A stretch of DNA of 64,000 bases from Planctomycetia bacterium (GCA_021413845.1 JAIOPP010000057.1:81690-145689); one strand, 5' to 3'; shown: positions 391 through 23,146, counted from the first letter of the stretch. A program made the numbers and translations. Notes: generated by a model from the letters alone, not told the origin.

Positions 391-3300
391 TCATCGAGCA
401 CCAAGCGCGCTGCGAGTGTCGAATACGCTGTCGAGTTCGTCGACGTCATGCATGCGCGGGTTGCGACGTCGCTCGTATTCCAATACCGGCAATGGATCGA
501 AGGCCTTCCAGGTCGGCAACGATGATAGCAAGATCGAGGTCAACGATCCGGCCTGAAGCGACCAGACGAGATAGCCGACCGTCAAGGTAGCGGTGATCCC
601 CGCCGTGCCGACGACCAAACACTCCACGGTCGTGTAGGCTTGCTCTTCGATCGTCGCTACGATCGTCTGCCAAGGAATCGACGCCTCTTGCGACGACCAA
701 CCTTCGGAAGTCTTAGCCGCCACCGGCCCTTTCGTCAGCAGCGCGGTTCGCACTCCGTGAGTCGCCTTACTGCCCGCGCTCGAGACACTGCTCCAATCGA
801 CGTTCTCACACCGATCTGCATAGAGCGTGTCGTCATCGATCGATTCGGAGGGGAGTACCGGTGGTCTCTCGTCGTGTGTTATTTTTGACTCTCGATCAAG
901 TAACGATGCCGTGTCGAAGCCTGACATTTGACGTACGTTCTCCAACATGCCGAGCAGCGTCGGGCGTGGAAGAGAAATCGTCGGCCAAAATACAACGTCA
1001 TGCGATGATGTGCCGGGAATCAACGCGACTTCCGAACGGCCGACGCTCGAGCCACCTGCGCCGTGATCATCCATAGTTTCCGGCTGTGGACTCGGGAATA
1101 CTGCCGCTTGCGAGATCGCAATCGTTGTCTGAATGGTTTGCGAACTCATGCCGTCGCGCGGTTCGTCGGTCACAACCAGAGAGACTTCGCCGTTGGTCGC
1201 AATTCCCCGAAAGCGCAGTCCGGCAAGCGCCGCATTGACATTCGTAAGCGTGCCGCTGAACGCCAGTAACGCGCCGCTCGAGCCCGCGCCGTCGACGAAA
1301 GTGAGCCCCGCCGTTTGCGCAAGCGCGACGGTGCCGTTGTGAGCCGTCAAAGTTACGGTCAATCTCGGATCTTCGGCATACGCATCTTCGATGGTGATTC
1401 CGCTTCCCGTAGTCGGAGAAAAAACGGCGAGATAGTTATCGGCACTAAGCGCGATCGGATTTCGCAATTGAATTCGATCCGCGGTGGGTTGCACCACCAC
1501 AGCGACTTGCGCCGCGGCAGTCCGTGCCCCGCCTCCTCCATTTAGCCCGAGATCGTCGACCGACACTGCAAAGCCTGTCGATCCGCGATAACTCTCGTTC
1601 GGGCTAAACTGAAGGCCATCGAGCGCAGAGTTCAAATTGCTCAAGCTGCCGCGAACGGTGATGGCGTCGTCGCTCGTGCCGTCACCGACGACGAAGGTGA
1701 GCCCGGCAGTTTGCGCCAACGTCAATGTGCCGTGGTTCGCGTTGAGCGTAAGCTCGATCGAGCCGGAGCCCGCATCGTTATCGCCGACGACCATGGCCCG
1801 ACCGTTCGCCGTCGAGAAAATCAGCCCGGTTTGAAACGCCGTCGTTTGCGCACCCGGCAGCGTCAAACTCGGCGCGTCGTTCACGGAATCGACGGCTAGA
1901 CTTAGCGTAGCGGTCGTGATTTGTGCCGGCCCCGACCCATTATGCCCAAGATCATCGACCGAGACCTGCAACTGCGCAGCGCCATAGAAGTTCGCCGTAG
2001 GATGGAATGCCGCTCCGTTGAGCGCCGCATTCATTGCAGCGGAAGTGCCTTGAAATATCATCAAGGCATCGTCGGTTCCGTCGCCAACCAAGAACGTCAG
2101 CCCACTGGTTCCGCTCAGCGAGATCGAACCGTTCGTTCCGGCAAGAGTCATTTGCAGCGGCAGCCCGGCAGCGTCGGGATCGGCAACCGCGATTGCATTC
2201 CCTCCCGCCGTGGAAAAGACCAATGCCGTGTCTTCGTTCGTCGCCTGCGCACTCGGCAGCGTGATGATCGCGGGCTCGTTCACGTTCGTTACCGTGACGA
2301 AAATCGTTTGCGTCGTGAAGAACGTCCCATCCGACGCACGGACGATTACCTGATAAACGTCGTCCCCATCCGAATCGGCCGGGGCTTCGAAATCGGGAGC
2401 GACGACGAAGCTTAGCGCACCGGTCGCTCCGTCGATCATAAAGCGTCCGGCATCCGTTCCGCCGCTGATCGAATAGTTGAGCGAGGGGGTCGGCAAATCG
2501 GCATCGGATGCCGCCACCGTAGTTACCGAAGTCGTATTTTCCGCCGCGCTCACGTTTGCTGATGCCCCGCCACCATTGCTCGTCATCGTAGGCGTGTGAT
2601 CGTTTACCGGAGTGACCGTGATCGAGATGTTGCTCGAAGTCGTTTGTGGGCCCCCTGTGCCGCTATAGCCGAGATCGTTGCTTACGACTCCGAGCGTTGC
2701 AGTACCGGCGAAATCGAGCGTCGGCATGAACGTGAGCCCATTCAAGGCCGCATTAATATCGACGATCATGCCCGTGAACGTCATCACGGCATCGGCCGTT
2801 CCGTCGCCGGTCGAGAACGTAAGACCGGATGTGCTGCCGAGCGTCGTCGTTCCGGAAGTTGTCGTAAGGGTCACTCGAATCGGATTCGACGCCGCTCCGG
2901 CATCGGCGATGCCGATCCCATTTCCCATGCCGCTACTAAACACGAGCGGCGTGTCTTCAAGCGTGGCTTGCGTTCCCGGCAGCGTGTGGATCGGAGCTAC
3001 GTTCGTTCCATCGATGAATCGTTGCAGAAATACTCCGTCGGCGTCACCGGCGCCGTTGCCGCTCCAAGCGACGACGAAGCCGTTCGAGCTTTGCATTGCA
3101 ACCGATGGCGACTGTTGCGAACCCGTTATCGTCCGATTGACGAGAGTTTCCGATGAGATGGCAGTCCCTGTCGCGTCGAATTGACGAAAGTAGACGCCGT
3201 CGCCGCCGGCGGCATCCTGATTAGTGCTTGTCCATGCGACGACGAAACTCCCCGAAGCATCCATCGCGATGCGCGATTCACGTTGGTCTCCCGCCGTTGT

Positions 3301-4332
3301 GACGTTCATCGCCGTCTCACCACCGACCTTTGCTCCCGTTGAATCGAACCGTTGTCCGTAGACTCCGTATCCGCTTCCGTCTTGAGCTTGGCTCGACCAT
3401 GTGACGAGGAAGTTTCCGGCACCATCCGTAGCAACCGCCGCTTCGGTCTGATTTCCTGCGGTGGTCGTATTAATTCGGAACTCGGCACCTAAAGGGTTGC
3501 CGGCGGCATCGAAGCGCCGACCGTACACGCCGGTGCCTGAGCCGTCCTGTGCAGCGCTCGTCCAAACGACGATGAAGTTTCCCGCAGCGTCGTAAGCAAC
3601 CGTCGAGAGATTCTGATCGCCGGACATCGCTGTATTGACGAGAAACGCAAGCCCATCCGGGGAACCGTTCGCATGGAACTGTCGCGCGAACACGGCATCG
3701 CCGCTGCCGTCGCCGAAAGCTCTCGTCCACGAAATCGTGAAGTCGCCCGCCGCATTGATCGCGATCGAAGGATCATGGAAGTCTTCCAACAGAGCCAGCG
3801 CGACTTGCTGTTCCGGACCGATCCGGCTTCCCGCGGCATCGTAGCGCTGAAAGTAGATCCCTTCGCCGAGAATCGTGATTCCAAGCACATCGAGGATCGG
3901 GCCCGACCATGCGACGACGAATGTCCCATCGGCCGCCTTGGCAACGGCAGCTTCCGTCTGATCGCCGAGAATCGTCGTGTTTACTTGAAACTCAGCCCCT
4001 TGTTTGTTGCCCGTCGCATCGAACCGTTGTGCGTAGATCCCCGTTCCGGTTCCATCCTGGCTATCGCTTGCCCAAGCGACGACGAAGGCCCCCGTGGGAT
4101 CCGCGGCGACGGCTTGCTGCGTTTCGTTTTGAATCGATTGCACGGACGTCGTCTCCGTGTTCACGAGAACCTCGCCGCCGGCCGGAGTCGCGCTAAACAA
4201 AATGCGATCTTCGTACTCGACGCAATCGAGCCTGCGGATTGTCCCCGGCATCGCGCGAAGAGGCGTTGCACGATCGTGCCGCAGCATTTTGCGCAGTCGA
4301 CTGCCGATGCGGTGAATGATGTGCGAACCCAT
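391..4332 (-). CDS. Giant secreted/surface protein with beta-propeller-like tandem repeats, adhesin-type modules, a cadherin-like domain and a C-terminal hydrophobic anchor
   Basis: 1313-aa ORF. N-terminus has ...RRLDCVEYEDRILFSATP (LEDR-x-L-x-SA type motif). aa ~52-440 hold seven tandem ~50-aa repeats (FVVAW/FIVVW/FLVTW ... DGSG.G(V/I)Y.(Q/R)RFD..G). aa ~447-1075 hold four related ~120-130-aa modules (LPG.QAT.EDT.LVFS ... LNGL.F.P ... VND(A/H)(P/T)). A cadherin-like unit lies at aa ~585-685 (DADLPTPSLNYSISGGTDAGRFMIDGATGALSF...VTNVNEP). Hydrophobic stretch at aa ~1225-1275. Confidence 0.85.
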   Translation of the reverse strand: MGSHIIHRIGSRLRKMLRHDRATPLRAMPGTIRRLDCVEYEDRILFSATPAGGEVLVNTETTSVQSIQNETQQAVAADPTGAFVVAWASDSQDGTGTGIYAQRFDATGNKQGAEFQVNTTILGDQTEAAVAKAADGTFVVAWSGPILDVLGITILGEGIYFQRYDAAGSRIGPEQQVALALLEDFHDPSIAINAAGDFTISWTRAFGDGSGDAVFARQFHANGSPDGLAFLVNTAMSGDQNLSTVAYDAAGNFIVVWTSAAQDGSGTGVYGRRFDAAGNPLGAEFRINTTTAGNQTEAAVATDGAGNFLVTWSSQAQDGSGYGVYGQRFDSTGAKVGGETAMNVTTAGDQRESRIAMDASGSFVVAWTSTNQDAAGGDGVYFRQFDATGTAISSETLVNRTITGSQQSPSVAMQSSNGFVVAWSGNGAGDADGVFLQRFIDGTNVAPIHTLPGTQATLEDTPLVFSSGMGNGIGIADAGAASNPIRVTLTTTSGTTTLGSTSGLTFSTGDGTADAVMTFTGMIVDINAALNGLTFMPTLDFAGTATLGVVSNDLGYSGTGGPQTTSSNISITVTPVNDHTPTMTSNGGGASANVSAAENTTSVTTVAASDADLPTPSLNYSISGGTDAGRFMIDGATGALSFVVAPDFEAPADSDGDDVYQVIVRASDGTFFTTQTIFVTVTNVNEPAIITLPSAQATNEDTALVFSTAGGNAIAVADPDAAGLPLQMTLAGTNGSISLSGTSGLTFLVGDGTDDALMIFQGTSAAMNAALNGAAFHPTANFYGAAQLQVSVDDLGHNGSGPAQITTATLSLAVDSVNDAPSLTLPGAQTTAFQTGLIFSTANGRAMVVGDNDAGSGSIELTLNANHGTLTLAQTAGLTFVVGDGTSDDAITVRGSLSNLNSALDGLQFSPNESYRGSTGFAVSVDDLGLNGGGGARTAAAQVAVVVQPTADRIQLRNPIALSADNYLAVFSPTTGSGITIEDAYAEDPRLTVTLTAHNGTVALAQTAGLTFVDGAGSSGALLAFSGTLTNVNAALAGLRFRGIATNGEVSLVVTDEPRDGMSSQTIQTTIAISQAAVFPSPQPETMDDHGAGGSSVGRSEVALIPGTSSHDVVFWPTISLPRPTLLGMLENVRQMSGFDTASLLDRESKITHDERPPVLPSESIDDDTLYADRCENVDWSSVSSAGSKATHGVRTALLTKGPVAAKTSEGWSSQEASIPWQTIVATIEEQAYTTVECLVVGTAGITATLTVGYLVWSLQAGSLTSILLSSLPTWKAFDPLPVLEYERRRNPRMHDVDELDSVFDTRSALGAR
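1108..2994 (-). repeat. Coding repeats: four ~120-130-codon adhesin-type modules (one cadherin-like insert) inside the giant protein gene
   Basis: Recurring blocks: PLVFSSGMGNGIGIADAG...LNGLTFMP...VNDHTP; ALVFSTAGGNAIAVADPD...LNGAAFHP...VNDAPS; LIFSTANGRAMVVGDND...LDGLQFSP; LAVFSPTTGSGITIEDAY...LAGLRFRG. Coordinates are approximate. Confidence 0.65.
3013..4179 (-). repeat. Coding tandem repeats: about 7 copies of a ~50-codon unit inside the giant protein gene
   Basis: Protein-level periodicity read directly from the translation (units ending FVVAWASD, FVVAWSGP, FTISWTRA, FIVVWTSA, FLVTWSSQ, FVVAWTST, FVVAWSGN). Coordinates are approximate. Confidence 0.7.
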
Positions 4333-4607
4333 GACTGCGCTCCCTGATCGAACTCAACCCGACCGAATGTTCTAAGAAAGAATTAGCTCACGCGATCGGC
4401 GCTTATGTGGAACACCACGCCGGATGATGACAAGCACCACATGGACGGAACCCGCGGAAAGACGGCAGTTACGGATTGCAGTGTCGCGAGTCGACAAGAT
4501 GGATTTACGAAATGCAGCGGTCGATGAGATCGAACGACGCAACGCCCATGCAACGCCGGCATGGTGACGTCGTCTGAAACCCATGCTTTATCAAGCTCGA
4601 TCTCGCG

Positions 4608-6392
4608 ATGCCCTATCTCTTCGCAATTAGAACGATTCAACTGCTCTGCTTTTGCCTCGCGACTGCGAGCGAAGTGCGGGTCGTTGCGCAGTCGATTCGG
4701 CCCCTCCCGCCGATCTCGGCGGAGACGAGTGTCGAAACATTGCAACCTGTTCTTCCAGCCGAGGACTTCAAGCTCGCTCTCGTCGACAACGAGCTCTGGT
4801 GGGACACGGCGCTACTCTCGTCGCTCAACGCCACGGAGTGCCCGCTAGCCATCGGGCTCGAAGCGGTCGTCAATCGCGTGCTGATGTTCTCTCCCCACGT
4901 GCGGATCGTTGCCGACGAGCCAGTGATTCGCGGCGCTCAAGTCACCGATGCCGCGTCGCGCTTCGATCCTCGCGCGTTTCTCGACTCGAAGTTCACCGAC
5001 ACGAGCGATCCGGTCGGCAATTTACTTACCACCGGCGGGGCGAGCCGCTACCTCAACCAAAACTTCGTTTCGTCGGGCGGCTTGCGACAAACGTTCGCTT
5101 CCGGCGCCAAGGCCGAGGTCGCACAGAAATTCGGTTACGAAGACAGCAACTCGCGATTCTTCATTCCACCGAACCAAGGCACCTCGCGCATCACGCTTAC
5201 GATCACGCAACCCCTCTTGAACGGCTCGGGCAAAGCCTACAACCTCAGCTCGATCTACTTAGCGGAGCTCGGCGTCGGCGCAGCCGTCGGTCGGATGCAA
5301 AAGGAATTGCAAGACATCATCATCGAATCGCATCGCGCCTACTGGGATCTGCGCGTGCAACGTGCCGCATTGCTGCAAAGAGCGCGCCTCAAGCAACAAG
5401 CGATCGATGTCGTCGCCGAATTGGAGGCGCGCGTCGATTTCGACGTCGTGCAGAGCCAGATCGTGCGAGCGAGAGCAGCCGCCGCTACGCGCGAGGCCGC
5501 GGTGATCCGTTTCGGAACCAACGTCGCCAACGCCGCGACACGGCTGCGTGCACTGTTGAACGATCCGAACCTACTGAATCCTCCGCAAGAGTTGATTCCG
5601 TTCGATCGCCCGTGGTCGGAGCCTGCTGAGCCGAATGTCGCGCAATCGCTGACGGACGCTTTGCAATATCGACCGGAAATTCAACAAGCATTTATCGAGG
5701 TCCGGGCGGCGAGCATTCAAGCCGATGTTTCGCAAAACGAACTCATGCCGCTCCTTAATCTCGTCTTGGGAACCTACGTTGCCGGACTTCAAGGCAATTC
5801 CGATGTCGGCCAAGCCTGGGTCGATCAATTCAGCGTCGGCCGTCCGACCTATTGGACCGGACTACAATTCGAGTACCCGCTGTTCAATCGAGGCGCTAAT
5901 GCGCGCCTAACGCAGCGCCGCGTGGAACTTCGCCAAGCGACAAACCGCTTGCAAGCCGCCATGCTCAATATACGAAGCGAAACCGAGATCGCGGTGCGAG
6001 AGGTATCGACGCTCTACCGCGAGATGCTCGCGAAACGTGATGCGATTCGAGCCAACGCCGCCGAGATCGACTATCTCACATCGCGACGTAGCCTCATGAT
6101 CGGCGACCCGCAAACGGCCGGCGTCGTGCTCGACGATCTCTTATCGGCCCAAGAACGACGAGCCAACGCTGAGTTCGACTTCGTCGCGGTTCAGGCGGCC
6201 TACAACGTCTCGCTCGTGAACTTGAATCGAGCAACCGGCACCTTACTGCAAACGCAACAAGTCCGCATCGACGACGCTTGCCAAGGGGGCGTCCCGACGT
6301 TGCAAGTCCGCTTGGATAAATCGGAAGCTCACCTTCCTATTGCGGCCCAACTCGGCGACGGCGTGCCCGCCGGCAACGAGGTGCCACGATGA
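4608..6392 (+). CDS. TolC-like outer membrane efflux protein (OEP family)
   Basis: 594-aa ORF with an N-terminal signal-like hydrophobic segment (LLCFCLATASEV). Two OEP-type helical repeats (LTDALQYRPEIQQAFIEVRAASIQADV...; LLSAQERRANAEFDFVAVQAAYNVSLVNLNRATG). Its stop overlaps the next start (ATGA at 6389-6392). Confidence 0.8.
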   Translation: MPYLFAIRTIQLLCFCLATASEVRVVAQSIRPLPPISAETSVETLQPVLPAEDFKLALVDNELWWDTALLSSLNATECPLAIGLEAVVNRVLMFSPHVRIVADEPVIRGAQVTDAASRFDPRAFLDSKFTDTSDPVGNLLTTGGASRYLNQNFVSSGGLRQTFASGAKAEVAQKFGYEDSNSRFFIPPNQGTSRITLTITQPLLNGSGKAYNLSSIYLAELGVGAAVGRMQKELQDIIIESHRAYWDLRVQRAALLQRARLKQQAIDVVAELEARVDFDVVQSQIVRARAAAATREAAVIRFGTNVANAATRLRALLNDPNLLNPPQELIPFDRPWSEPAEPNVAQSLTDALQYRPEIQQAFIEVRAASIQADVSQNELMPLLNLVLGTYVAGLQGNSDVGQAWVDQFSVGRPTYWTGLQFEYPLFNRGANARLTQRRVELRQATNRLQAAMLNIRSETEIAVREVSTLYREMLAKRDAIRANAAEIDYLTSRRSLMIGDPQTAGVVLDDLLSAQERRANAEFDFVAVQAAYNVSLVNLNRATGTLLQTQQVRIDDACQGGVPTLQVRLDKSEAHLPIAAQLGDGVPAGNEVPR

Positions 6393-8179
6393 ACCCGATG
6401 CTGTCATCGACTTCGATGCCTTCGACTTGGTGGAACCGCACGTTTCAGCGACGTCGCCGGCCCGCTTTCGATGTTGCGGAAACACTTCACTCGTTTTCGT
6501 GTGCGGTCGAGCGACACCTCGGCATCACGCCGTTCGATTCCCAGTTGCACGCCGCTACGTTGCTTGCACAAGGTCGTGCCGTCGAGATGCGCACCGGCGA
6601 AGGGAAGACTCTCGCCGTCGCCGCAGCAGCTGCCGCCCGTGCCATTGCGGGCCGAAGCGTGCATGTTGCGACCGTCAACCGCTACCTTGCCGACCGAGAT
6701 TTCCATACGTTCGCGCCGGTCTTGCGTAGCATGGGCTTGAGCGTCGGACTAGTCGACGGCAGAGCGACTTCGGAGATCAAACGGCAAGCCTACGGCTCGC
6801 AAATCGTCTACGCGACGGGCTACGATCTGGGGTTCGACTATCTGCGCGATCAGCAACGTCGTGCGCGGCAAAACTCGTCGCGACTCGGCGATGAGCTTGT
6901 GCGTCGTTTATCCGGGATCGACAACACGCACGATATGCCGATGCCGCTCGACTTCGTCATTATCGACGAAGCCGATTCGGTGTTGCTCGACGAAGCGTCC
7001 GTTCCGCTATTGCTCGCCGAATCGACGAACCAAAATGTCAAAGATGCCGCAGCCACCGAATCGGCCGCACAGTCTTGTCGGGAGCTTAATCTTGGGCGAG
7101 ATTATCTCGTAGATTCGCATAGTCGCGTCATCTCATTAACGATGAATGGCGCCGATACGATCGAACACCGGCTGAGACCACGGCCCGAGCTTTTGCTCCT
7201 CCGGCCGTGGCGGCAGTATGTCGAACATGCGCTTATCGCGCATCTCCTGTTGCAACGCGATGTGGACTATATCGTCTTCGACAATCGGATTCACCTAGTC
7301 GACACGACGACGGGTCGCATCTTCGACGACCGACGCTGGTCCGAGGGACTGCAGCAAGCCGTTGAATGGAAGGAACGTCTCCCGTTTTCGCAGCCGACGA
7401 TCGGATCTGCGAGTATTACGCGTGCCTGTTTTTTTCGCTCTTATCGCACGATGGCGGGAATTTCCGGGACTCTCATCGAAGCGGCCGGTGAACTTCGCTC
7501 GACGTTCGGACTCACGGTCGAAGCGATCCCACCGCGACTTCCTTCGCGTCTTATCGAACTTCCGACTCGCTACTTCGCAACTCCGGAAGCGCGACGTCGC
7601 GCCGTGGCATTAGAGACGGAGGCTATGCAACGACTCGGTCGGCCAGTGCTCGTGGGCTGTCGTACGATCGCGGAAAGCGCCGCAATTGCCGAAGAATTCA
7701 AACGACGACGCATTTCGCATCGGGTACTCGATGGCCGGCAAACCGAAGCGGAAGCGGCGATCATCGCCGAAGCCGGCCGGAGCGGTATTGTTACCATCGC
7801 GACGAACATGGCCGGTCGCGGGACCGATATTCGTCTTGGTAAGAGTGCGAAGGATTGCGGCGGCCTTCATGTCATCGGCATCGAGCGCAACGATTCGGCG
7901 CGCATCGATCGGCAACTACTAGGTCGTGCCGGAAGACAAGGAGATCCCGGCTCGGGCCGCTACTTCGTCGCCGCTTCCGATTCGTTGATCGCAAATGATC
8001 CGAAGCTGATCGCTTCGATGGTTCAATCCGCCGAAGCAAACGGCGAGGCTCACGGCAACTTCGAGCAGCAATGGACCGAATGCAGGCGCGTCGTCGAGCT
8101 CGATGCTCTCAAGCGACGAGCATCTATAGAACAACGGTATTTACGACGAGCGGACTCGACGACCATTCTGCTCGGATAA
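6389..8179 (+). CDS. Truncated SecA-family ATPase (NBD1-PPXD-NBD2 only, 596 aa)
   Basis: SecA signature blocks: FDSQLHAATLLAQGRAVEMRTGEGKTL (Walker A at 6596-6610), SVHVATVNRYLADRD, IVYATGYDLGFDYLRD, IIDEADSVLLDEASVPLLL, DVDYIVFDNRIHLVDTTTGRI...RRWSEGLQQAVEWKE, MAGISGTL, IATNMAGRGTDIRLG, GGLHVIGIERNDSARIDRQLLGRAGRQGDPGSGRYF. The protein ends ~60 aa after the last block, where canonical SecA continues for ~300 aa. Confidence 0.85.
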   Translation: MNPMLSSTSMPSTWWNRTFQRRRRPAFDVAETLHSFSCAVERHLGITPFDSQLHAATLLAQGRAVEMRTGEGKTLAVAAAAAARAIAGRSVHVATVNRYLADRDFHTFAPVLRSMGLSVGLVDGRATSEIKRQAYGSQIVYATGYDLGFDYLRDQQRRARQNSSRLGDELVRRLSGIDNTHDMPMPLDFVIIDEADSVLLDEASVPLLLAESTNQNVKDAAATESAAQSCRELNLGRDYLVDSHSRVISLTMNGADTIEHRLRPRPELLLLRPWRQYVEHALIAHLLLQRDVDYIVFDNRIHLVDTTTGRIFDDRRWSEGLQQAVEWKERLPFSQPTIGSASITRACFFRSYRTMAGISGTLIEAAGELRSTFGLTVEAIPPRLPSRLIELPTRYFATPEARRRAVALETEAMQRLGRPVLVGCRTIAESAAIAEEFKRRRISHRVLDGRQTEAEAAIIAEAGRSGIVTIATNMAGRGTDIRLGKSAKDCGGLHVIGIERNDSARIDRQLLGRAGRQGDPGSGRYFVAASDSLIANDPKLIASMVQSAEANGEAHGNFEQQWTECRRVVELDALKRRASIEQRYLRRADSTTILLG

Positions 8180-8195
8180 GAGGTTTCGTTCAATC

Positions 8196-9065
8196 ATGAT
8201 GAGACTAAGGAAACAAAGCATGTCGCTACGATTCTTCGACACGATTCTCTTGCTACAGTTGGTTGTAGCAGCGCAGGCTCATGCCGAGACGTTCGAGAGT
8301 TTTACGGAACCTTCACGAACGATCGACGTCGCTCCCGCCGAGACGGGAGTCGTCGCCCGCGTCGAAGTTCGCGAGGGAGATCGTGTCCGCAAAGGTCAAG
8401 TACTGGCATCGCTCGACAAGGAAGTTCTGTTGATCGCTCGCGAAATCGCCCAAGCGTCGGTCGATGCGACGGGCCGCAAGGATGCGGCGCGAGCCGAAGC
8501 GGAATTGCGCAAGACTCGACTCGACAAGATTCGTACGCTGCGCAGCTCAGGCCATGCCGCCTCCGAAGAAACGCAACGGGCGGAGATGGAGCACACAGCG
8601 GCAAAGGGACAGCATCAGTCGCTCGAAGAGCAGGCGATCGTCGACCGGCTCGAAGTCCGGAAGATCGACTCGATGATCGAACGGCGACTTGTTCGGAGCC
8701 CGATCGACGGCATCGTCACGCACATTCACTATGATCACGGAGAGTTCGTCACTCCCATCGCGCCGACCATCGTTACGGTCGTACAGCTCGATCCCCTTCG
8801 TGCCGTATTCAATCTACCGCAGTCGGCCGCTCGCGCTTTGAAGCCCGATGCGACGGTTGTGCTGAATTTTCCCGAGGAAGAAGAAGGAGTTCCGGGGAAA
8901 GTGGAATTCATCGCGCCGGTAATCGATGCGGATAGCGGCACCGTGCGTGTGAAAGTCCTTATTGATAACATCGATCAGACACGCCTGGCTGGTCGACGTT
9001 GCACGCTCCGTCTCGACGAAGTGCCGGCGCAACAACCGACCGCACCGCAAATCGCGAATCCTTAA
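8196..9065 (+). CDS. HlyD-family membrane fusion / periplasmic adaptor protein
   Basis: 289 aa with a signal peptide (LLLQLVVAAQAHA). Lipoyl-like hairpin halves (VARVEVREGDRVRKGQVLASLD ... SPIDGIVTHIHYDHGEFV), a central coiled coil, and a beta-barrel segment (GTVRVKVLIDN). 16-nt gap to the upstream gene. Confidence 0.8.
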   Translation: MMRLRKQSMSLRFFDTILLLQLVVAAQAHAETFESFTEPSRTIDVAPAETGVVARVEVREGDRVRKGQVLASLDKEVLLIAREIAQASVDATGRKDAARAEAELRKTRLDKIRTLRSSGHAASEETQRAEMEHTAAKGQHQSLEEQAIVDRLEVRKIDSMIERRLVRSPIDGIVTHIHYDHGEFVTPIAPTIVTVVQLDPLRAVFNLPQSAARALKPDATVVLNFPEEEEGVPGKVEFIAPVIDADSGTVRVKVLIDNIDQTRLAGRRCTLRLDEVPAQQPTAPQIANP

Positions 9066-9081
9066 ACAGACTCAGAACATC

Positions 9082-10461
9082 ATGATTCCGACTTTTATTC
9101 GTTCTGATCGACGCCACGATTCGGCAGTTCAGCAACCGAACGACGACTTACGCCGGAGCCACGACACTTCAGCCGCGCTTTTGGAGCTTGCGAAGCAGTT
9201 CGTTATCGCCACGGACGATGAAACGGCTTGCCGATGCTTGGCGACAGGCTTGAAAGAGCTGGGGAATTTAGAATCCGTAGCGATCGGTTTAATTGCGGGC
9301 TCCCGATGTAGGCTCCGCGCTATCTCCGGCATAGCGACGATCGAGTCGAATGCCCCGAACGTGCGAACTTGGGAAGCGGCACTTACCGAATGCGCTACAA
9401 CAGCCAACTTCAGGCTGGATTCGGCAACCGAGGCAATGACTTCCGTCGACGGAACTCAGGAACGGCCTTGGTGCCTTCCTCTGAAATCCGGCGATGGCCG
9501 TGTTTTCGGTGCGTGTGCGATAGTACTTCCAACGGCACTCGACGACACAGCAAATCGATCGTACCTACGAACGGTCGTCGACGTGCTCGGTCCACTCTTC
9601 GCTACGGCGATGCAGGCGCGCCGCTCTTCGGCGTTGGTTGTCAGCTTGAAACGAATCGGCAATGCCATTTCCGGCCGTCGACGCTGGGCCATCGTCGTTT
9701 GTGCAATGATCGCGACGATGATCACTCCCTTGCCTTTCACCGTCCGTTGCGATTGCGAGCTACAACCCAAGCAACAACGTGTCGTTGCGGCCCCTTTCAA
9801 TGCCGTTTGGCGGCAAAGCCACGTTCGACCGGGCGATTTCGTCACGGAAGGTCAACCGCTCGGTCTTCTCGACTCGTCCGAGTTGCTGAGAGAACTTGCT
9901 GCGGCGACGGCCGATCGAGATCGAGCCGCTAAATCGAGCGACGTGAATGCCGCTGCCGGAAAAACGGCTGCCGCACAAATCGATCGTTTGGAAGTGCGAC
10001 GTGTCGAGGAACGAAGGTCTCTACTCATGCGCCGTCTGGAAAATATCGAATTGAAGAGTCCGATTACGGGAATCGTGATGAGTGGCGAATGGGAACGCGC
10101 GGAAGGGGCCCCGATCAAGCAAGGAACCGTGCTCTATGAGATCGCGCCGCTAGATCGAATCGTCGTCGAGACATTCGTTGCCGAAGGCGAGATCGAACGC
10201 CTGCGGCCGGGCTCCTCGGCTACCGTGGTACTAGATGCTCGGCCTTACGAGAACTATACCGGTACGGTCGAGCGCATCTATCCCCGAGCGGAGATTCACG
10301 ACGACGCGAACGTTTTTATCATCGAAATCACACTGGATAATCCCGACCGCGTCCTGCGACCCGGCATGAAAGGACACGTTTACGTGGAGACGGAAACTCG
10401 TTCGATAGCGAAGCTATTCACCGATCGCTTTTGGCCGACATATGCTTGGATGAGTTGGTAA
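9082..10461 (+). CDS. HlyD-family adaptor with a GAF-like cytoplasmic N-domain and one TM helix
   Basis: Start moved to ATG 9082 because the track start at 8962 overlaps the upstream gene. The N-terminal ~215 aa has a GAF-like pattern (tentative). TM helix WAIVVCAMIATMITPLPF. HlyD motifs follow: RPGDFVTEGQPLGLLD, a coiled coil, SPITGIVMSGEWERAEGAPIKQGTVLYEIAP, RPGMKGHVYVE. Confidence 0.7.
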   Translation: MIPTFIRSDRRHDSAVQQPNDDLRRSHDTSAALLELAKQFVIATDDETACRCLATGLKELGNLESVAIGLIAGSRCRLRAISGIATIESNAPNVRTWEAALTECATTANFRLDSATEAMTSVDGTQERPWCLPLKSGDGRVFGACAIVLPTALDDTANRSYLRTVVDVLGPLFATAMQARRSSALVVSLKRIGNAISGRRRWAIVVCAMIATMITPLPFTVRCDCELQPKQQRVVAAPFNAVWRQSHVRPGDFVTEGQPLGLLDSSELLRELAAATADRDRAAKSSDVNAAAGKTAAAQIDRLEVRRVEERRSLLMRRLENIELKSPITGIVMSGEWERAEGAPIKQGTVLYEIAPLDRIVVETFVAEGEIERLRPGSSATVVLDARPYENYTGTVERIYPRAEIHDDANVFIIEITLDNPDRVLRPGMKGHVYVETETRSIAKLFTDRFWPTYAWMSW

Positions 10462-10462
10462 C

Positions 10463-12664
10463 GTGAGTATGAAAATCGGTTCGCCCTCATCTCCTGCGAC
10501 GCAAACTCACATTCTTCATCCGGAACGGCTCGTCGTCGCCGCTCGTCGCGACTTAAGGGTTTCGACTCGACACGATCGCGGCGAGCTTTTCTACTTCGTC
10601 GAAGATCCGTTACGAAACAAATTCTTCCGCTTAGGAAAAGCGGAGCATGCGCTATTCTTAGCACTGGACGGAACGCGAACGCTGGCCGAAGCCGCGGCCC
10701 ACACGGCATCGGCGTCGGGCTCACAAGCTCTCACGCAAGACGAAGCAGTCTTGCTCGGGGAGTGGCTTGTACGATCAGGCTTGGCATCGAGCGACATCGG
10801 TCTTGCCTCACGTAGTCCGACGATGTCACAAGTCCCGACAAGACATGACCGGTGGAATCTTTGGTCGTTTCGGATCACGCTGGGAAGTCCCGACCGTGCG
10901 CTGGAAACCCTGGACCCGTTCGGTCGATTTCTCTTCGGGCGAACATTTCTCGTGCTCTGGTTCGCGATTCTCGCAGCGGCGCTGCTGCAAGCGTTAACGG
11001 CTTGGCCGATGCTTGCGAAAAACTCGCCCATCGACTGGGGTTGGCAAGGTGCTTTGTCGCTCTTCGCGGCTTGGTGCGGCCTCAAGATTTTGCATGAACT
11101 AGCACACGCGATCGCTTGTCGACGGTTCGGCGGCAACGTCGGCAACGTGGGACTCGCATTCGTGCTGGGAATGCCGTCGCCGTTCGTCGACGTATCGACG
11201 ATCTGCCGCGTGCCCGACAAGTGGAAGCGGATCGTCGTCTCATTGGCAGGGATTTACATCGAGATTTTCGTAGCGGCGCTGGCGATGATCGCCTGGAGTG
11301 CTTTTGAAGATCCCTTAGTAAGGCAAGGAGCACTCGCCGTCGTCTGGGCTGCAGGAATCGGATCGGTGATTTTCAACCTGAATCCGCTCATGCGATTCGA
11401 CGGGTACTTCGCACTCTCGGATGCCATGGAGATGCCTAACCTATCCGCCGTCGGCCAAGAGGAATCATGGCGGCTTCTACGACGTTTCTTGTTCGGTATC
11501 GACGAAGCGGAGATCTCCGCCAAGGGACGTCGCCCCGCCTGGGTTGCCTGGTACGGCATCGCGGCGATGCTGTGGCGCACGTTCGTTCTCGGCTCGTTGT
11601 TGCTACTAGCGATCGCGAAGCTAGGAGCATTCGGAACCATTTTTATTTCGATCCCTCTATTTCTCGCTTGGTTAGCAAAGCGCCGAACTCTCCGCCGTTC
11701 CCTAATCCGAGGTGGAGCAAACGTCGGTAGGAATCGACAACGGCAAGCCGCGACCTGCACGGCACTCGGGCTGCTCTCGGCGATCTTGTTCTACTGCTTA
11801 GATCCAAGCACGAAGGAACTCGCAGCGGTGGTCGACTATGAACCGCTCGAAGTCGTGCGAGCGGGCACAGCCGGATTCGTTCGACAAGTCTTCGTATGTG
11901 ATGGCGAGCAAGTCTTCGCGGGACGTAAGATCGCGGAATTAGACAACGCCGAATTGCTTGCCGAGATCGGTCAAGTCGAACTCGCGATCGAACAATCCAC
12001 GATTCGCTCGCGCATGCATCGGCAAGCTAAAACAACCTCGAAAGAGCAAACGGAGCGATTGCAACGCCAAGTCCTCGAAACGGAGTTGCGGGAGCTTCAT
12101 CACCAAAGAGAAGGCCTGACCATCGTCGCCGCAACGGACGGAACGATCGTCTCGCGAGGCATCGATCGCTATGTGGGGCTACGGTTGGAAAAAGGGGATG
12201 AGATCGCCTCGATCGCCGGCGACTCAGCGAAAACGCTTAAGATTGCCGTGCCGCAACGCTTGGTGACGGCGATCGCGAATGCCGAGGATCGCACTGCGGA
12301 CGTCCTGATTCACGGACATCGAAAACCGGTATCGATTCGTTTGGCGACGTGCGACCCTCAAGCCTCGACGCGCTTGATCCACCCGGCGATGAGCGTGGAA
12401 CATGGTGGCATGCTGAGCATACGCCGGCGGGAAGCGACGCCGGACGAAGCCGGAGAAGGCAAATCAAGGAACCGCCGCGATACGACGATCGCGGAAACAG
12501 TAGAACCTTGTTTTCAGATGACGGCGCGAGCGGATGAAGAAACGCTGCGAGATGTGGCCGCCGGCCGTACGGCAATCGTGAAGGTTCGCATTCCATGGCG
12601 AAGCGCGCTCCACGATTATTGGTCGCGCTCCTCGGCTTGGCTGCATCATCCGCAAGCGGAATGA
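10463..12664 (+). CDS. Fusion protein: PqqD/RRE-like N-domain + M50 (site-2 protease family) membrane metalloprotease core + C-terminal HlyD-like domain
   Basis: 733 aa, starting at GTG 10463 or ATG 10469, 1 nt after the upstream stop. aa ~20-110 read ...LFYFVEDPLRNKFFRLGKAEHALFLALDGTRTLAEAA...LGEWLVRSGLA (PqqD-like, tentative). The polytopic core carries HELAH (11093-11107) and NLNPLMRFDGYF (M50 motifs). The C-terminal ~290 aa has a coiled coil (AELDNAELLAEIGQVELAIEQ) plus beta segments (ATDGTIVSRG), as in HlyD. Confidence 0.75.
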   Translation: MSMKIGSPSSPATQTHILHPERLVVAARRDLRVSTRHDRGELFYFVEDPLRNKFFRLGKAEHALFLALDGTRTLAEAAAHTASASGSQALTQDEAVLLGEWLVRSGLASSDIGLASRSPTMSQVPTRHDRWNLWSFRITLGSPDRALETLDPFGRFLFGRTFLVLWFAILAAALLQALTAWPMLAKNSPIDWGWQGALSLFAAWCGLKILHELAHAIACRRFGGNVGNVGLAFVLGMPSPFVDVSTICRVPDKWKRIVVSLAGIYIEIFVAALAMIAWSAFEDPLVRQGALAVVWAAGIGSVIFNLNPLMRFDGYFALSDAMEMPNLSAVGQEESWRLLRRFLFGIDEAEISAKGRRPAWVAWYGIAAMLWRTFVLGSLLLLAIAKLGAFGTIFISIPLFLAWLAKRRTLRRSLIRGGANVGRNRQRQAATCTALGLLSAILFYCLDPSTKELAAVVDYEPLEVVRAGTAGFVRQVFVCDGEQVFAGRKIAELDNAELLAEIGQVELAIEQSTIRSRMHRQAKTTSKEQTERLQRQVLETELRELHHQREGLTIVAATDGTIVSRGIDRYVGLRLEKGDEIASIAGDSAKTLKIAVPQRLVTAIANAEDRTADVLIHGHRKPVSIRLATCDPQASTRLIHPAMSVEHGGMLSIRRREATPDEAGEGKSRNRRDTTIAETVEPCFQMTARADEETLRDVAAGRTAIVKVRIPWRSALHDYWSRSSAWLHHPQAE

Positions 12665-12697
12665 AGCCCTCCATATATGCCTGACGGCAATAGAGGA

Positions 12698-14776
12698 TCA
12701 TCCACGCTTCGGTCGTGGAATGCGGGTGCCACCGCCGCCCCCTTTGCCTTTTCCTTTGCGACGTCCTTTTCCCTCGCTCGCAGTCTCGGAGATGATCGCA
12801 GCCGGCTTGCCCATATGCCCCTTCATCTTGTCGATCCGGTCTCGAATGTTCGCTGCACGTTCGAAGTCGAGCTCATCGGCGGCGGCAAGCATCTCGGCTT
12901 CCAACTCCGCGATGTATTCTTCCGTAATGTATTGCGTCTCGTCGGTGCGACCTACCGCGGCATTGGCTTCCGCATGCGCCGTCTGGAGCGATTCGATTCC
13001 TTGACGAATCGATTTCCGCACCGTTTCCGGCGTAATGCCGTGGGCGATGTTGTACTCATGCTGGAGCGTTCGGCGGCGCGAGGTTTCTTCGATCGCTCGC
13101 TGCATCGACTCTGTCACCTTATCCGCATACAGCAGCACCTTCGCGTTGACGTTACGTGCCGCACGACCGATCGTTTGCATGAGGCTCGTCTCGCTGCGAA
13201 GAAAACCTTCTTTATCGGCATCGAGAATGGCGACCATCGACACTTCGGGCAAGTCGAGCCCTTCGCGCAACAAATTGACACCGATCAAAGCTTCGAAACG
13301 CCCCTCGCGCAGGTCGCGTAGATGCTCGACACGCTCGAATGCGTCGAGTTCGCTATGCAGCCATTTACACTTAACGCCATGCTCATTGAGGTAGTACGAC
13401 AGGTCTTCCGCCAGACGCTTCGTCAACGTCGTCACAAGCACGCGCTCGTCGACGGCAGACCGTAGCTTGATTTGCTCGAGCAAGTGCGGCACTTGCCCGC
13501 GCGCGGGTAGCACTTCGATGATGGGATCGAGCAAGCCGGTCGGACGAATGACTTGTTCGACGACTTCACCGCCGGTTTTCTGCATTTCGTAAGGGCCGGG
13601 AGTCGCCGAGACGTAAACTCCTTGTCGGAACTTCTGTTCCCATTCTTCGAACTTGAGGGGGCGATTATCGAGGGCGCTCGGCAAACGAAAACCGTGTTCG
13701 ACCAGCGTCGTCTTACGACTTTGATCGCCGGCGAACATGCCCCGAATCTGCGGCACCGTCACGTGCGACTCGTCAACGACGAGGAGAAAATCCTTCGGAA
13801 AGTAATCGAACAACGTTTCGGGTGCGGCGCCGGCAGGCCGGCCCGTTAGGTGTCGGCTGTAGTTCTCGATGCCCGGGCAGTAGCCGACTTCCATCATCAT
13901 CTCGATGTCGAAACGTGCGCGAGCGTTCAGACGCTGCGCTTCGAGGAGCTTCCCCGTGTTGCGAAGCTGCTCGAGCCGCATCTCAAGCTCGGCCTTAATC
14001 CCGTCGATCGCTTGCTCGATCTTCGATTCGGGCAAGACGAAGTGCTTGGCGGGATAGATGAAGATTTCGTTTTGTTGCTGAATCGTCTCGCCGCTCGTGG
14101 GATCGACATACGAGAGCGATTCGACCTCATCTCCCCAGAACTCGATGCGGTAGGCAAACTCTTCGTACGCCGGCCAGAGTTCCACGCAATCGCCTCGAAC
14201 CCGAAACTTCGTTCGCTCGAAAGCGTAGTCGTTGCGCTCGTACTGAATCTCGACGAGCCGACCCAACATTTCATCGCGGTCGACTTGCTGCCCACGCGTG
14301 AGCGAGACCATCATCGCTTTATAATCCTCGGGCGAGCCGAGGCCGTAGATCGACGACACGCTCGACACGATGATCACATCTTTACGACTGACGAGTGCGC
14401 TTGTCGCGGCCAGTCGCAAGCGGTCGATCGCCTGATTGATCGACGCGTCTTTTTCGATGTAGATATCACGCTGCGGGATGTAGGCTTCGGGCTGATAATA
14501 GTCGTAATAGCTGACGAAATAATGAACGGCGTTCTCCGGAAAGAACTCCTTAAATTCGCCGTATAGCTGCGCCGCGAGAGTTTTATTGTGCGAGAGGACG
14601 AGTGTCGGGCGGCTGATCTCTTGAATGACGTTCGCCATCGTGAACGTCTTGCCGGAGCCGGTCACACCCATCAGCACCTGCTCGCGTCGGCCCGCACGTA
14701 GCCCCTCGATAAGCGATGCGATCGCTTGCGGCTGATCACCTGCCGGCTGAAACGGGCTATGCAGTTTGAAGTCCAC
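12698..14776 (-). CDS. uvrB: Excinuclease ABC subunit B
   Basis: [17 protein letters not shown], Walker [54 protein letters not shown], and the C-terminal UVR domain ([21 protein letters not shown]). Start set at GTG 14776, preceded by GGAGAAAG. The track ATG at 14911 would add 45 non-conserved residues. Confidence 0.95.
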
Positions 14777-14961
14777 GAGTGTCTTTCTCCGTAACGTGGC
14801 GCTTGCCGAGGTCTCCGGCGACGACCTCTCTCGACGCAGGCCTTCTCCGTGCCGACCCATCAGCATACGGCATTCGTCGGTGCGGCGCGAAGGGGGAGTT
14901 TCGCGAAGCATTGCGGAAGGAAATTCGCATCGATTCCGCTTTAAGAAATGGCGCGTCGACG

Positions 14962-20554: not shown

Positions 20555-20635
20555 AGTTTCGCATTCCTCGCGGTTCGCTCAGGCGGCGGCACGGCAGTAA
20601 TCGCGAATAGGCGGGAGTCGGAAAGGTTCGTTCGT

Positions 20636-21700
20636 ATGGTTTCATTGCAAGGATTTCGACGCGTCGGCCCGATCGGCATCGACTTGGGGAGCCGTTCCAT
20701 CAAGCTCGTGCAGATGAACGGCGATCGTACGCGCATCCTCGAATCGGTTCGCTGGGATCTTCCGATCGAACCGGCCGTCGACGCCGATGAACAACTACGT
20801 CGCTGGACGAAGGCGCTGGTCGATGCGCGCGAAGGCCGCAAGTTTCGCGGGCGCGATGTCGTCGTTTGTTTAGGTGCCCGCGAGCTCGCCGTGCAGAACG
20901 TGCGCGTCACGAAACCGGCTTCCGGAGAATTGGAACCGCTGATTTTGAAAGAAATCGGCGATCGCTTCGCGTATCCGATCGCCGAAAGCGACCTACGGTT
21001 TCTAGAAGCGGCCGACGTTCGACAAGGAGACACGATTCGTCGCGAAGTCATCGTACTCGGTTGCCATCGTCCGCAGTTGAATCGCTTCATGCAGGTGCTC
21101 GACGATTCCGGCCTCAAGCCGGTAGCGGTCGAAGCGGAACCGCAATCCATACTGCGTTGCTACGGCGCTCAATATCGTCGTGATGAGGATCGCGATCAGC
21201 GGGCGATCGTCGTGCATGTCGGCAACACGAACACGGCCGTCGTCATCGCGCAAGGGAATGAAATCCTCTTCATCAAATACATCGAGCTCGGCGGCAAACA
21301 TTTCGACGAAGCCGTGGCCCGGACGCTCAAAATGGAGTTACCTGCGGCTTGGGCCTTGCGTCGTAACAACGGCGATCGACGCACGGAATTGCAGGATGCC
21401 GAGATCGCACGGAGCGTGAACGAATCGATTCGTCCGGTTGTCGATCGACTGGCGAATGAAGTCTCGCTCTGCATTCGATATCACAGCGTGACGTTTCGAG
21501 GCCAACCGTTGGTGCGATTGGTGCTCGGCGGCGGAGAAGCAACGCAAAACCTCGTCGAACGCTTAGCCGCTCGCTTGGATCTGAAGTGCGAACTCGGTGA
21601 TCCGTTCCGCAGCTTTCCGACCGCCGCCGGTGCGAGCACGGGTCGTAAATCGCAATGGGACGTCGCCATCGGCATGGCGATGCGTCGTTTCGACGAATAA
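20636..21700 (+). CDS. pilM: Type IV pilus assembly protein PilM (actin-like ATPase fold)
   Basis: IGIDLGSRSIKLVQM, VAVEAEPQSILR, VVHVGNTNTAVVIAQG and LVLGGGEATQNL are the typical PilM/FtsA-like phosphate and adenosine motifs. Confidence 0.85.
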   Translation: MVSLQGFRRVGPIGIDLGSRSIKLVQMNGDRTRILESVRWDLPIEPAVDADEQLRRWTKALVDAREGRKFRGRDVVVCLGARELAVQNVRVTKPASGELEPLILKEIGDRFAYPIAESDLRFLEAADVRQGDTIRREVIVLGCHRPQLNRFMQVLDDSGLKPVAVEAEPQSILRCYGAQYRRDEDRDQRAIVVHVGNTNTAVVIAQGNEILFIKYIELGGKHFDEAVARTLKMELPAAWALRRNNGDRRTELQDAEIARSVNESIRPVVDRLANEVSLCIRYHSVTFRGQPLVRLVLGGGEATQNLVERLAARLDLKCELGDPFRSFPTAAGASTGRKSQWDVAIGMAMRRFDE

Positions 21701-21711
21701 AGGCGACGCCC

Positions 21712-22533
21712 ATGAAAACAATCGACTTTCTTCCGGAGCGTTATCGCCAAGCGACGAAGCGCAGACGCACTTCGTATTGGCGGCTCGGCGTCACGGTATT
21801 GTTTCTCGTAGCCTTTGCTGCAGCAGCCGGTGGATTGTTCCTGATCGAGCGCGATGTACGAGGCCGGTACGAACAAACCAACGCTCTGCATGCCGCGGCG
21901 CAAGCCCAGCAGATGCTCGTCGCAAACAAACAACTCGAGCTCACGGAGCTGCGCAATCGTGCCGAGTTGGCAACCTTTCTGCGCCACCCTTGGCCTCGTT
22001 CGCGCATCGTGCATGAAGCGCTTGTGAACCTCCCGCAGGAAGTAACGATCGAGCGACTACATCTCCATGTCGCGGAGCGTCCGAAAGTGCGCGTCGCCGA
22101 AGCCGCGGCCGCTGTGGAGAGCACGACGCCAAAAATAGCGAATGCGGAATCGGATCTGACGGCTCTGCGCACGGCGCTCGAGGCCGTCGATCTGCTCGTG
22201 ACCCTCGAAGGGATCACGTTCGATCAACCCGCTCTGCACGTTTATCTTCAAGCGTTGGCGGCGTCGAAATTGTTCGTGAAAGCGGAACTAACGTCGATCG
22301 AAGCAGTTACCGGCGACTCCAGCGGCGGCGAAGTCCGCTTCGCGGTGCGCATCGTCGTTCGACCGGGCTGGGGTATGCCCGGAGGCCCGAGCGCTGAGGA
22401 AGCGCAACCTGCCGATGAAGAAAAGCCGGCTGATCCGGTCGCCGAAAAAGAAAGTGCCTCTAAAGCATGGGTGGCGGATACCGCATTGCTTCAACGGCCG
22501 AACATCGATGCCGGTGGGAGGGTAATACCGTGA
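21712..22533 (+). CDS. PilN-like pilus/secretion alignment protein
   Basis: Start set at ATG 21712. The short cytoplasmic N-terminus MKTIDFLPERYR resembles the PilN INLLP motif. Single TM LGVTVLFLVAFAAAAGGLFLI. Directly downstream of pilM. Confidence 0.65.
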   Translation: MKTIDFLPERYRQATKRRRTSYWRLGVTVLFLVAFAAAAGGLFLIERDVRGRYEQTNALHAAAQAQQMLVANKQLELTELRNRAELATFLRHPWPRSRIVHEALVNLPQEVTIERLHLHVAERPKVRVAEAAAAVESTTPKIANAESDLTALRTALEAVDLLVTLEGITFDQPALHVYLQALAASKLFVKAELTSIEAVTGDSSGGEVRFAVRIVVRPGWGMPGGPSAEEAQPADEEKPADPVAEKESASKAWVADTALLQRPNIDAGGRVIP

Positions 22534-23078: not shown

Positions 23079-23146
23079 GTCGAGCCTACCAATTACCGAT
23101 ACATGAGGGGCCGGAGTCGGACGATCGCCGTTCGCCGGTATGAACG

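Follow-up and report, generated by a model that had tools for sequence, protein, structure and literature searches.

A 64,000-nt stretch of genomic DNA from a Planctomycetia bacterium (GCA_021413845.1, JAIOPP010000057.1:81690-145689; the whole stretch is hereafter called the window) carries a compact operon that contains a shortened SecA-like ATPase. Five genes lie in about 8 kb on the plus strand, spaced by a 4-nt overlap and then by 16, 16, and 1 nt. The first gene (4608-6392) encodes a TolC-like outer-membrane factor of the OEP type with 594 aa and an N-terminal signal-like sequence. It is followed by the SecA-like gene (6389-8179), whose 596-aa product combines a DEAD motor and a preprotein cross-linking domain (PPXD) with a shortened C-terminus. 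Downstream are a small periplasmic adaptor of the HlyD/RND_mfp type (289 aa, 8196-9065), a second adaptor that is of the GAF type in its relatives (459 aa, 9082-10461), and a 733-aa fusion protein (10463-12664) in which a domain resembling the RiPP recognition element (RRE)/PqqD fold, an M50/site-2 protease (S2P)-like metalloprotease, and an HlyD-type adaptor follow each other (RiPP, ribosomally synthesized and post-translationally modified peptide). A divergent gene on the minus strand (391-4332) lies 276 bp from the operon and encodes a 1313-aa repeat protein, which is a candidate cargo. The first-pass annotation of the SecA-like gene had expected dedicated partners in the same operon, and candidate partners do surround the gene in a closely spaced operon. 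It had recognized the HlyD adaptor among them and had overlooked the TolC-like gene, two more HlyD-domain proteins, the M50 protease, and the giant neighbour.

The SecA-like gene starts with the ATG at 6389, which is part of an ATGA overlap with the stop codon of the OEP gene, and a GAGG is located 8 nt upstream of this start. A 5′ extension is blocked because an in-frame TAA occupies 6317-6319. The Pfam models SecA_DEAD (PF07517, 6.8e-64) and P-loop_SecA (PF21090, 1.2e-44) match the product, and the PPXD was located at residues 223-326 (7055-7366) by SecA_PP_bind (PF01043, 2.1e-23), which aligns over model positions 6-110 of 110. Residue conservation was read from an alignment of 24 SecA-like family members. 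The Walker A block MRTGEGKTL (residues 67-75, 6587-6613) has invariant G70, G72, and K73, and the DEAD sequence of Walker B (residues 193-196, 6965-6976, within IIDEAD) has invariant D193, E194, and D196. The residues of motif V and motif VI are likewise invariant, and the GRAGRQGDPGS block ends at residue 522. All motifs quoted in the first-pass annotation, including the block TIATNMAGRGTDI, are present at their places, confirming its statement that the motor blocks of SecA are intact. Collectively, the invariant catalytic motifs, the complete PPXD, and the SecA-like predicted fold give this protein the look of a functional motor.

The NCBIfam models of SecA and SecA2 match the protein strongly, yet far under their cut-offs. 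For housekeeping SecA, the scores reach 452 bits with TIGR00963 (cut-off 800) and 432 bits with NF009538 (cut-off 814), and for SecA2 they reach 427 of 725 bits (TIGR04221), 369 of 930 (TIGR03714), 416 of 1085 (TIGR04397), and 318 of 1100 (NF012136). The alignment to the SecA2_Mycobac model spans residues 28-571. A phmmer search of the PDB aligned residues 39-534 with residues 72-546 of Bacillus subtilis SecA, leaving residues 1-38 merely unaligned, and on balance the protein is about 33 residues shorter than canonical SecA at the N-terminus. The earlier figure of about 70 lacking N-terminal residues was therefore too high. The short N-terminus is restricted to the window protein and its closest relative (P0002). 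Most members of the truncated family retain the canonical N-terminus, including about 35-45 residues that the window protein lacks, and with 596 aa this protein is the shortest in the set compared. Furthermore, a family-specific insertion of about 20 residues (approximately 157-187) was found in nucleotide-binding domain 1 (NBD1), between FDYLRD and the DEAD box, and is absent in B. subtilis SecA. L166 and G167 are nearly invariant in this insertion, where the model confidence is lower (pLDDT around 65), and it might be a partner-binding element.

The C-terminal end differs most from canonical SecA. No Pfam match to SecA_SW was obtained for the protein encoded at 6389-8179. The profile of the 24 SecA-like sequences, aligned to B. 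subtilis SecA (3jv2), covers residues from about 17 to about 615, and its tail falls on the first part of the long scaffold helix. In the AlphaFold2 (AF2) model (pLDDT 84.3, pTM 0.81), the protein ends in one helix formed by residues 559-595 (8063-8173, DSSP assignment), which corresponds to a stub of the long helix of the helical scaffold domain. The 74 residues that follow GDPGS, counted earlier as about 60, include this helix. The stub is 37 residues long, with an invariant R577 and a nearly invariant E570. Foldseek gave the best superposition with SecY-engaged SecA structures (5eul_A and 6itc_A; TMq 0.81-0.82, root-mean-square deviation 3.6-3.7 Å), that is, with the closed-clamp form, and SecA structures were matched only up to helix 559-595. 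The engineered truncation SecA-N68 (5k9t) was also among the Foldseek matches. The wing domain, the two-helix finger, and the C-terminal tail are absent, because there is no SecA_SW match, the family profile stops at about residue 615, and the model ends in one helix; the ATPase motor and the clamp are kept. The proposal that the SecY-engaging C-terminal half is missing stands for wing, finger, and tail and needs qualifying for the scaffold, of which the conserved stub stays. The accompanying view that such a protein probably cannot engage SecYEG canonically is reasonable. The structure prediction and superposition that had been suggested as a check revealed no compact two-helix finger.

The short length could in principle reflect a frameshift, a misassembly, or a decaying pseudogene, and one related record does hold such a case, since the SecA-like gene of Ramlibacter (L087) is frameshifted and mis-called as a fusion. 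The 120 best homologues of the window protein, mostly from Planctomycetota, are all 568-725 aa long, none of them has SecA_SW, and the tail is conserved. The closest relative (62% identity) has the same short N-terminus in two independent assemblies, and in its locus the preceding gene likewise overlaps by 4 nt (ATGA) and the genes that follow are the same. The flanking genes leave no space where a C-terminal half could be encoded next to it, because the OEP gene overlaps it by 4 nt and the HlyD gene starts 16 nt later, and the SecA-like family profile finds no other open reading frame (ORF) in the window. Together with the upstream in-frame stop and the confidently predicted fold, these observations effectively refute an artefact or a pseudogene and dispose of a hidden C-terminal half. 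They agree with the first-pass annotation, which saw no frameshifted continuation and identified the next ORF, 16 nt downstream, as HlyD (TIGR01730, 2.3e-40, above the cut-off, for 8196-9065). A split SecA with its C-domain on a separate ORF of the operon was also rejected, as all five ORFs belong to other families; small extra ORFs in two related loci (L003 and L087) are not conserved. The 812-aa Ramlibacter gene that appears to join SecA_DEAD and HlyD was discarded as a Rosetta-stone fusion, since it looks frameshifted or mis-called. In this gene (Ramlibacter montanisoli, L087:12515-14953), an Arg-rich linker that looks out of frame follows RIDRQLFGRG, and the HlyD part begins with its own signal peptide MNRTLISLLTLALPWSAWA.

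The other operon products resemble parts of an envelope-spanning export apparatus. The OEP protein is matched by PF02321 (7.4e-21) and, under the cut-off, by TIGR01844 (3.6e-21). The second adaptor (HlyD_D23, 1.5e-23) consists of a cytoplasmic N-terminal domain, one transmembrane (TM) segment at residues 203-221, and a periplasmic HlyD domain. It aligns end to end (BLASTP 1e-65) with a Lignipirellula homologue that bears a weak GAF match, and GAF is clear in the Ramlibacter homologue. Its start at 9082 is supported by the equal 16-nt spacing in a related locus (L089), and its N-terminus is about 150-170 aa shorter than in most homologues (459 versus about 620-660 aa). The GAF and PqqD labels rest on homologues, because the window's own proteins give no GAF or PqqD Pfam match at E ≤ 10. 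No ABC (ATP-binding cassette) transporter was found either in the operon or in those related loci for which the genes were tabulated, and neither SecY2 nor Asp genes occur in the operon, where the SecA-like gene is accompanied only by the OEP and three HlyD-domain proteins, one of them the M50 fusion. A promoter and terminator scan of 4200-12800 gave fewer sites than shuffled sequences and was uninformative. The operon end converges with uvrB on the minus strand (12698-14911).

The M50-HlyD fusion has about five TM segments in its protease part, and its closest curated relatives are the intramembrane metalloproteases that process RiPP leaders, namely daptide_HExxH (3.3e-47) and YydH/LiaK in NCBIfam. 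The Pfam M50 score of the window protein is 17.3 against a gathering threshold of 27.2, and all 34 family members match this model at E ≤ 0.01. The HExxH zinc site (H211, E212, and H215; 11093-11107) is invariant in 34 sequences and in 6 loci. Downstream, the NPLMRFDG motif (N307-G314, 11381-11404) supplies Asp313 as the S2P-type third ligand, and N307, L309, R311, D313, and G314 are invariant in the 34 sequences. HExxH plus a downstream Asp in a motif of the NxxPxxxxDG type amid TM segments is the M50/S2P signature. In the AF2 model (pLDDT 85.8), the N-terminal approximately 100 residues adopt a beta-beta-beta-alpha-alpha-alpha order, and Foldseek of the full model returned adaptor-domain matches only (MacA, MexA, AcrA, and EmrA). 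PqqD (PF05402) matches the N-terminal region in 8 of the 34 family members and in one paralogue, and some relatives are named 'PqqD family peptide modification chaperone'. PqqD represents the fold of the leader-recognition elements of RiPP systems. From its motifs, the protease of this partner looks active, and a peptide-recognition domain is present in its relatives.

We surveyed 87 loci (L001-L086 plus the window), comprising 80 from species-representative genomes scanned with the M50-HlyD alignment, 6 metagenome-derived loci, and the window; ORFs were called and then classified by profiles. The 80 loci come mainly from Pirellulaceae and other Planctomycetota, and also from Verrucomicrobiota, Desulfobulbaceae, Beggiatoa, Ca. 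Venteria, Arenicella, and Brocadiia. Among GTDB representatives, the best match to the window's M50-HlyD protein is 34% identical. The same gene set is present in Alpha- and Betaproteobacteria, and at E ≤ 1e-30 the M50-HlyD family counts 7,674 cluster representatives (clustered at 50% identity). The succession of small HlyD, GAF-HlyD, and M50-HlyD is the near-universal core of the 87 loci, and the window order, with OEP and SecA-like genes in front of this core, is the commonest arrangement that contains SecA. The small HlyD gene directly follows the SecA-like gene in 31 of its 35 occurrences, and an OEP gene precedes it in 22 of 35. Two SMI1/SUKH-type (immunity-protein-like) genes are located between the SecA-like and small HlyD genes in Lignipirellula cremea (L001:12117-13285).

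The divergent neighbour of the operon carries cadherin (1.1e-6) and tandem-95-repeat (tand_rpt_95, 2.2e-11) matches. Its translation shows repeats of about 55 residues (FVVAW.S..QDGSG.GVY.QRFDA.G...G.EF.VNT.T.G.Q) at residues of approximately 80-440. Near its N-terminus, the sequence YEDRILFSA (residues 40-48, 4189-4215) resembles the LEPR-XLL motif by regular expression and alignment. There is no Sec-type signal before this motif, because the preceding segment is basic and non-hydrophobic. In every one of the loci first inspected, a very large repeat protein of 1,313 to more than 11,000 aa with cadherin, Big_9, DUF4347, or CLIPPER domains lies beside the system. Similar N-terminal motifs were identified in the giants of L001 (LEARIMLSA and LEDRVMLSA), L002 (LEDRLLFSA), L004 (LEARVLYSA), and L006 (YEDRTLFNA). 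In L001 (Lignipirellula), motif-bearing giant DUF4347/cadherin proteins flank the operon on both sides.

The first 300 residues of the ORFs of all 87 loci were then scanned with a regular expression of the LE[DEP]RxLF/L-S/D-A type. Among the 39 non-system ORFs with 900 aa or more, it matched 22; it also matched 8 neighbours cut off at a locus end and 1 of 1136 other ORFs of 150-899 aa. The 30 motif-bearing neighbours come from 29 of the 87 loci (30 of the 412 ORFs that reach 300 aa), and all of them are within 3.5 kb of a system gene, at a median distance of about 300 bp. The curated LEPR-XLL hidden Markov model (HMM) NF012209, a 24-residue N-terminal model, matches 24 of 31 motif N-termini with a best E-value of 6e-8; the window neighbour fits the regular expression and aligns with the 24 HMM-positive neighbours. 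A 10,068-aa protein near the system in Mesorhizobium neociceri bears the canonical LEPRLLLNA. These results suggest that the operon is linked to the neighbouring giant surface-type protein. Beside the Mesorhizobium giant lies a SapC-family gene (L088:804-1586), and SapC and TolC genes are described beside giant proteins of Chlorobium chlorochromatii in a 2026 preprint (10.64898/2026.03.19.712371).

At the opposite end of the window neighbour, no RTX repeats were matched, and a conserved hydrophobic segment was found instead (approximately residues 1240-1284, 481-615) with the motif TVGYLVWSLQAGSLTSILLSSLPTWKAFDPLPVL, which is common to the giants of L012, L074, and L075. The window copy reads GYLVW...LPTWKAFDPLPVL. 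The general pattern, GY(V/L)(I/V)W...G.L..S..S..P.W...DPLP(I/V), stands 24-46 residues from the end of the giants and occurs in 4 of 4518 ORFs, all of which are system neighbours (the window, L012, L074, and L075). A second C-terminal module of about 95 aa, PHxM...YN.S..G.(F/Y)N.R.YF.P...H..N...W...YE(F/L), is unrelated to the window type and was observed in six giants (L003:1-6804, L054:3-4994, L070:1-5079, L071:3-4547, L081:2-5026, and L086:3-6008). These giants are encoded immediately ahead of the OEP gene in the same orientation, and their N-termini fall outside the loci.

The truncated SecA as found is not a discovery, because it has been on record since 2015. Kamneva, Poudel and Ward described 'secondary SecA_DEAD domain proteins' without all or most of SecA_SW (PLoS One 2015, PMC4452313), encoded with HlyD (biotin-lipoyl), GAF-HlyD, and weak-M50-HlyD proteins and sometimes an OEP. 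In their study, the locus spans five phyla, Planctomycetes and other Gram-negatives with Chlorobi among them, the partners can be encoded elsewhere in the genome, and the clade is placed next to actinobacterial SecA2. The authors proposed that the SecA-like protein is the ATPase replacing the ABC transporter of a system like the type I secretion system (T1SS), and suggested the M50 protein as a possible membrane component. The words 'cadherin', 'cargo', and 'adhesin' are absent from the text of PMC4452313, and no cargo is named there. Nothing essential differs between the published family and the window, where SecA_DEAD is present, SecA_SW is absent, and the neighbourhood is conserved. The window is a further member of this widespread family and locus type, and the canonical SecA of the genome lies outside the window. 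The first-pass view that a 596-aa form is unusual has to be given up in the face of a large recurrent family. The RRE/PqqD-like domain was not described in the 2015 paper, and a literature search found no published link between the LEPR-XLL motif and the SecA-like/HlyD/M50 system or PqqD. What the present analysis adds is the active-site invariance of M50-HlyD, the RRE/PqqD-like domain, the motif link to the giant neighbours, and the counts of loci in which the SecA-like gene is absent in cis.

Several known systems resemble the window operon in part. E. coli SecA N68 (5k9t) has the same DEAD motor and PPXD and no C-domain, whereas the window protein is a conserved natural gene product with a stub of about 37 residues, an NBD1 insertion of about 20 residues, and operon partners. 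The N68 fragment has a de-repressed ATPase and is not known to translocate proteins. SecA2 (TIGR04221, TIGR03714, and TIGR04397; 4uaq and 6sxh) is likewise a paralogous second SecA of comparable similarity, and the window protein may be likened to it as a paralogue with a dedicated substrate set. SecA2 proteins have about 760-790 aa, keep the scaffold and the two-helix finger, and work with SecYEG or SecY2. In contrast, the window protein has neither the finger nor the scaffold beyond the stub, scores far below the SecA2 cut-offs, and has no SecY2/Asp genes beside it. The HlyD-type adaptors and the TolC-like channel are shared with T1SS (TIGR01730, PF02321, and the MacA/MexA/AcrA/EmrA folds). 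Peptidase-containing ABC transporters (PCATs) and the T1SS of giant adhesins provide parallels for an inner-membrane protease module, an N-terminal leader-like motif, and a giant repeat protein as candidate cargo. Unlike T1SS, the operon has no ABC transporter, a SecA-derived ATPase, and three different HlyD-domain proteins; unlike PCATs, it has an M50/S2P-type protease with an RRE-like domain rather than a C39 cysteine peptidase; and unlike T1SS substrates, the window neighbour has neither RTX nor a C-terminal T1SS-type signal. The neighbours are very large proteins with an N-terminal LEPRxLL-type motif, as are the LEPR-XLL proteins of NF012209, from which the window neighbour and its L006 orthologue diverge.

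We give about an even chance to the reading that the truncated SecA serves as cytoplasmic ATPase in an envelope-spanning exporter of the giant neighbour, one that is type-1-like and independent of Sec. This reading builds on the observed domain content, catalytic motifs, truncation point, operon structure, synteny, and motif enrichment among neighbours. The RRE-M50 protease-HlyD fusion and the GAF-type HlyD protein would form an inner-membrane platform, and the small HlyD adaptor and the TolC-like outer-membrane channel would complete the conduit across the envelope. The SecA-like protein would stand in for the nucleotide-binding domains of an ABC transporter. The substrate, presumably the adjacent giant repeat protein, would be gripped in unfolded form in the PPXD/NBD2 clamp, and clamp and DEAD motor would feed the chain forward. 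Its LE[DEP]RxL[FL] leader might be read by the RRE-like domain of M50-HlyD, and the M50 site possibly removes this leader or cuts the conserved C-terminal hydrophobic segment. Such a machine would be an analogue of a peptidase-containing ABC exporter, with a SecA motor in place of the nucleotide-binding domains and M50 plus RRE in place of the C39 peptidase. The contacts among the components, the inner-membrane pore, the threading direction, the cleavage, and the driving of transport by ATP hydrolysis are what we infer for this exporter. A more specific version is possible but rather doubtful. It holds that a finger-less SecA motor drives a one-step, Sec-independent conduit across both membranes that is dedicated to giant LEPR-XLL proteins, with the RRE-S2P protease-adaptor fusion as the inner-membrane component, its RRE-like domain reading the LE[DEP]RxL[FL] leader, and M50 perhaps clipping it.

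A number of observations weigh against such an exporter. The main weakness of any motor model is the missing cis SecA-like gene: of the 63 loci whose upstream sequence spans 6 kb or more, 34 contain HlyD, GAF-HlyD, and M50-HlyD and lack a SecA-like gene within 10 kb. The oep-hlyd-gafhlyd-m50 arrangement accounts for ten of the 34, and a Mariniblastus contig has one core copy with a SecA-like gene and another without (L038 versus L031). Because the SecA-like gene is missing in cis from these loci, the motor would be supplied in trans or would not be obligatory. The operon encodes no known protein-conducting channel, and an S2P-type core is not known to conduct polypeptides. The SecA-like protein lacks the two-helix finger, which is the pushing element in power-stroke models. 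On the side of the cargo, adjacency is no proof of a cargo relationship, and the NF012209 HMM matches neither the window neighbour nor its L006 orthologue. Furthermore, the M. extorquens operon is mostly not expressed in exponential growth (PMC4452313), and a literature search found no experimental or computational follow-up after the 2015 paper.

One alternative is an accessory SecA that acts through the housekeeping SecYEG, as in SecA2-only systems. Special substrates would then cross the inner membrane through SecYEG, M50 would be a leader peptidase, and HlyD/TolC would carry out a second step from the periplasm. The lack of an obvious inner-membrane protein channel in the operon, the intact PPXD and motor, the model in a SecY-bound-like closed clamp, the extent of the SecA2_Mycobac alignment, and the position of the clade next to actinobacterial SecA2 (PMC4452313) are all consistent with this alternative. 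It is nevertheless quite unlikely. Finger, wing, and C-tail are absent, about 33 N-terminal residues are missing in the window copy, all SecA and SecA2 models score far under their cut-offs, no hydrophobic signal of the Sec type precedes the motif in the candidate cargo, and N68 is not known to support translocation. The frequent absence of the SecA-like gene in cis may mean that its product is an accessory. The protein may be a non-translocating, ATP-dependent factor (a holdase, an unfoldase, or a targeting factor) that prevents very long nascent or completed substrates from folding and delivers them to the membrane complex; transport would then draw on another source, such as the proton-motive force or extracellular folding. 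Retention of the clamp with loss of the finger fits such a role. However, the strict conservation of all ATPase motifs, the linkage to the small HlyD gene in 31 of 35 occurrences, and the translational coupling fit an integral subunit as well, and we regard the holdase role as unlikely.

If the giant neighbours were coincidental, the operon might serve the export or maturation of small, RiPP-like peptides. The M50 part is most similar to metalloproteases that process leaders (daptide and YydH/LiaK), the name 'PqqD family peptide modification chaperone' is attached to relatives, and a radical SAM gene occurs near the Mesorhizobium locus. This explanation has to contend with the enrichment of motif-bearing large proteins by the system and with the conserved termini that the giants share. 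No conserved small precursor ORF was noticed in the operon, although no systematic search was made. We consider a small-peptide apparatus improbable.

The envelope-spanning exporter would be of interest for several reasons. The system, first described in 2015, is very common. If the cargo link and the RRE-like reader hold, it gains a testable substrate, and the link would account for the export of some of the largest bacterial proteins, reaching 10,000 aa and beyond, with neither a Sec signal nor an ABC exporter. A true finger-less motor would define a distinct class of secretion system and offer a natural test of whether polypeptides can be moved by the clamp and DEAD motor of SecA in the absence of the finger. 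The mechanism of SecA itself is disputed between power-stroke models, in which the finger pushes the polypeptide, and ratchet models, in which motor and clamp bias its diffusion. A natural finger-less SecA would allow these models to be tested directly against each other.

Other features of the window lie apart from the operon. Apart from a sole tRNA, tRNA-Val(CAC), at 60891-60965 on the minus strand, the 64 kb gave no match to rRNA or to any other Rfam family. A type II secretion or type IV pilus-like cluster extends over approximately 20600-33700 and includes a secretin (24019-26472), a tetratricopeptide repeat (TPR) protein (26375-28228), a histidine kinase (28370-29842), and a T2SSE/MshEN ATPase (30653-32404). 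Further downstream, the plus-strand gene at 46423-50397 encodes a 1324-aa protein with an FtsK/SpoIIIE domain (1.5e-33).

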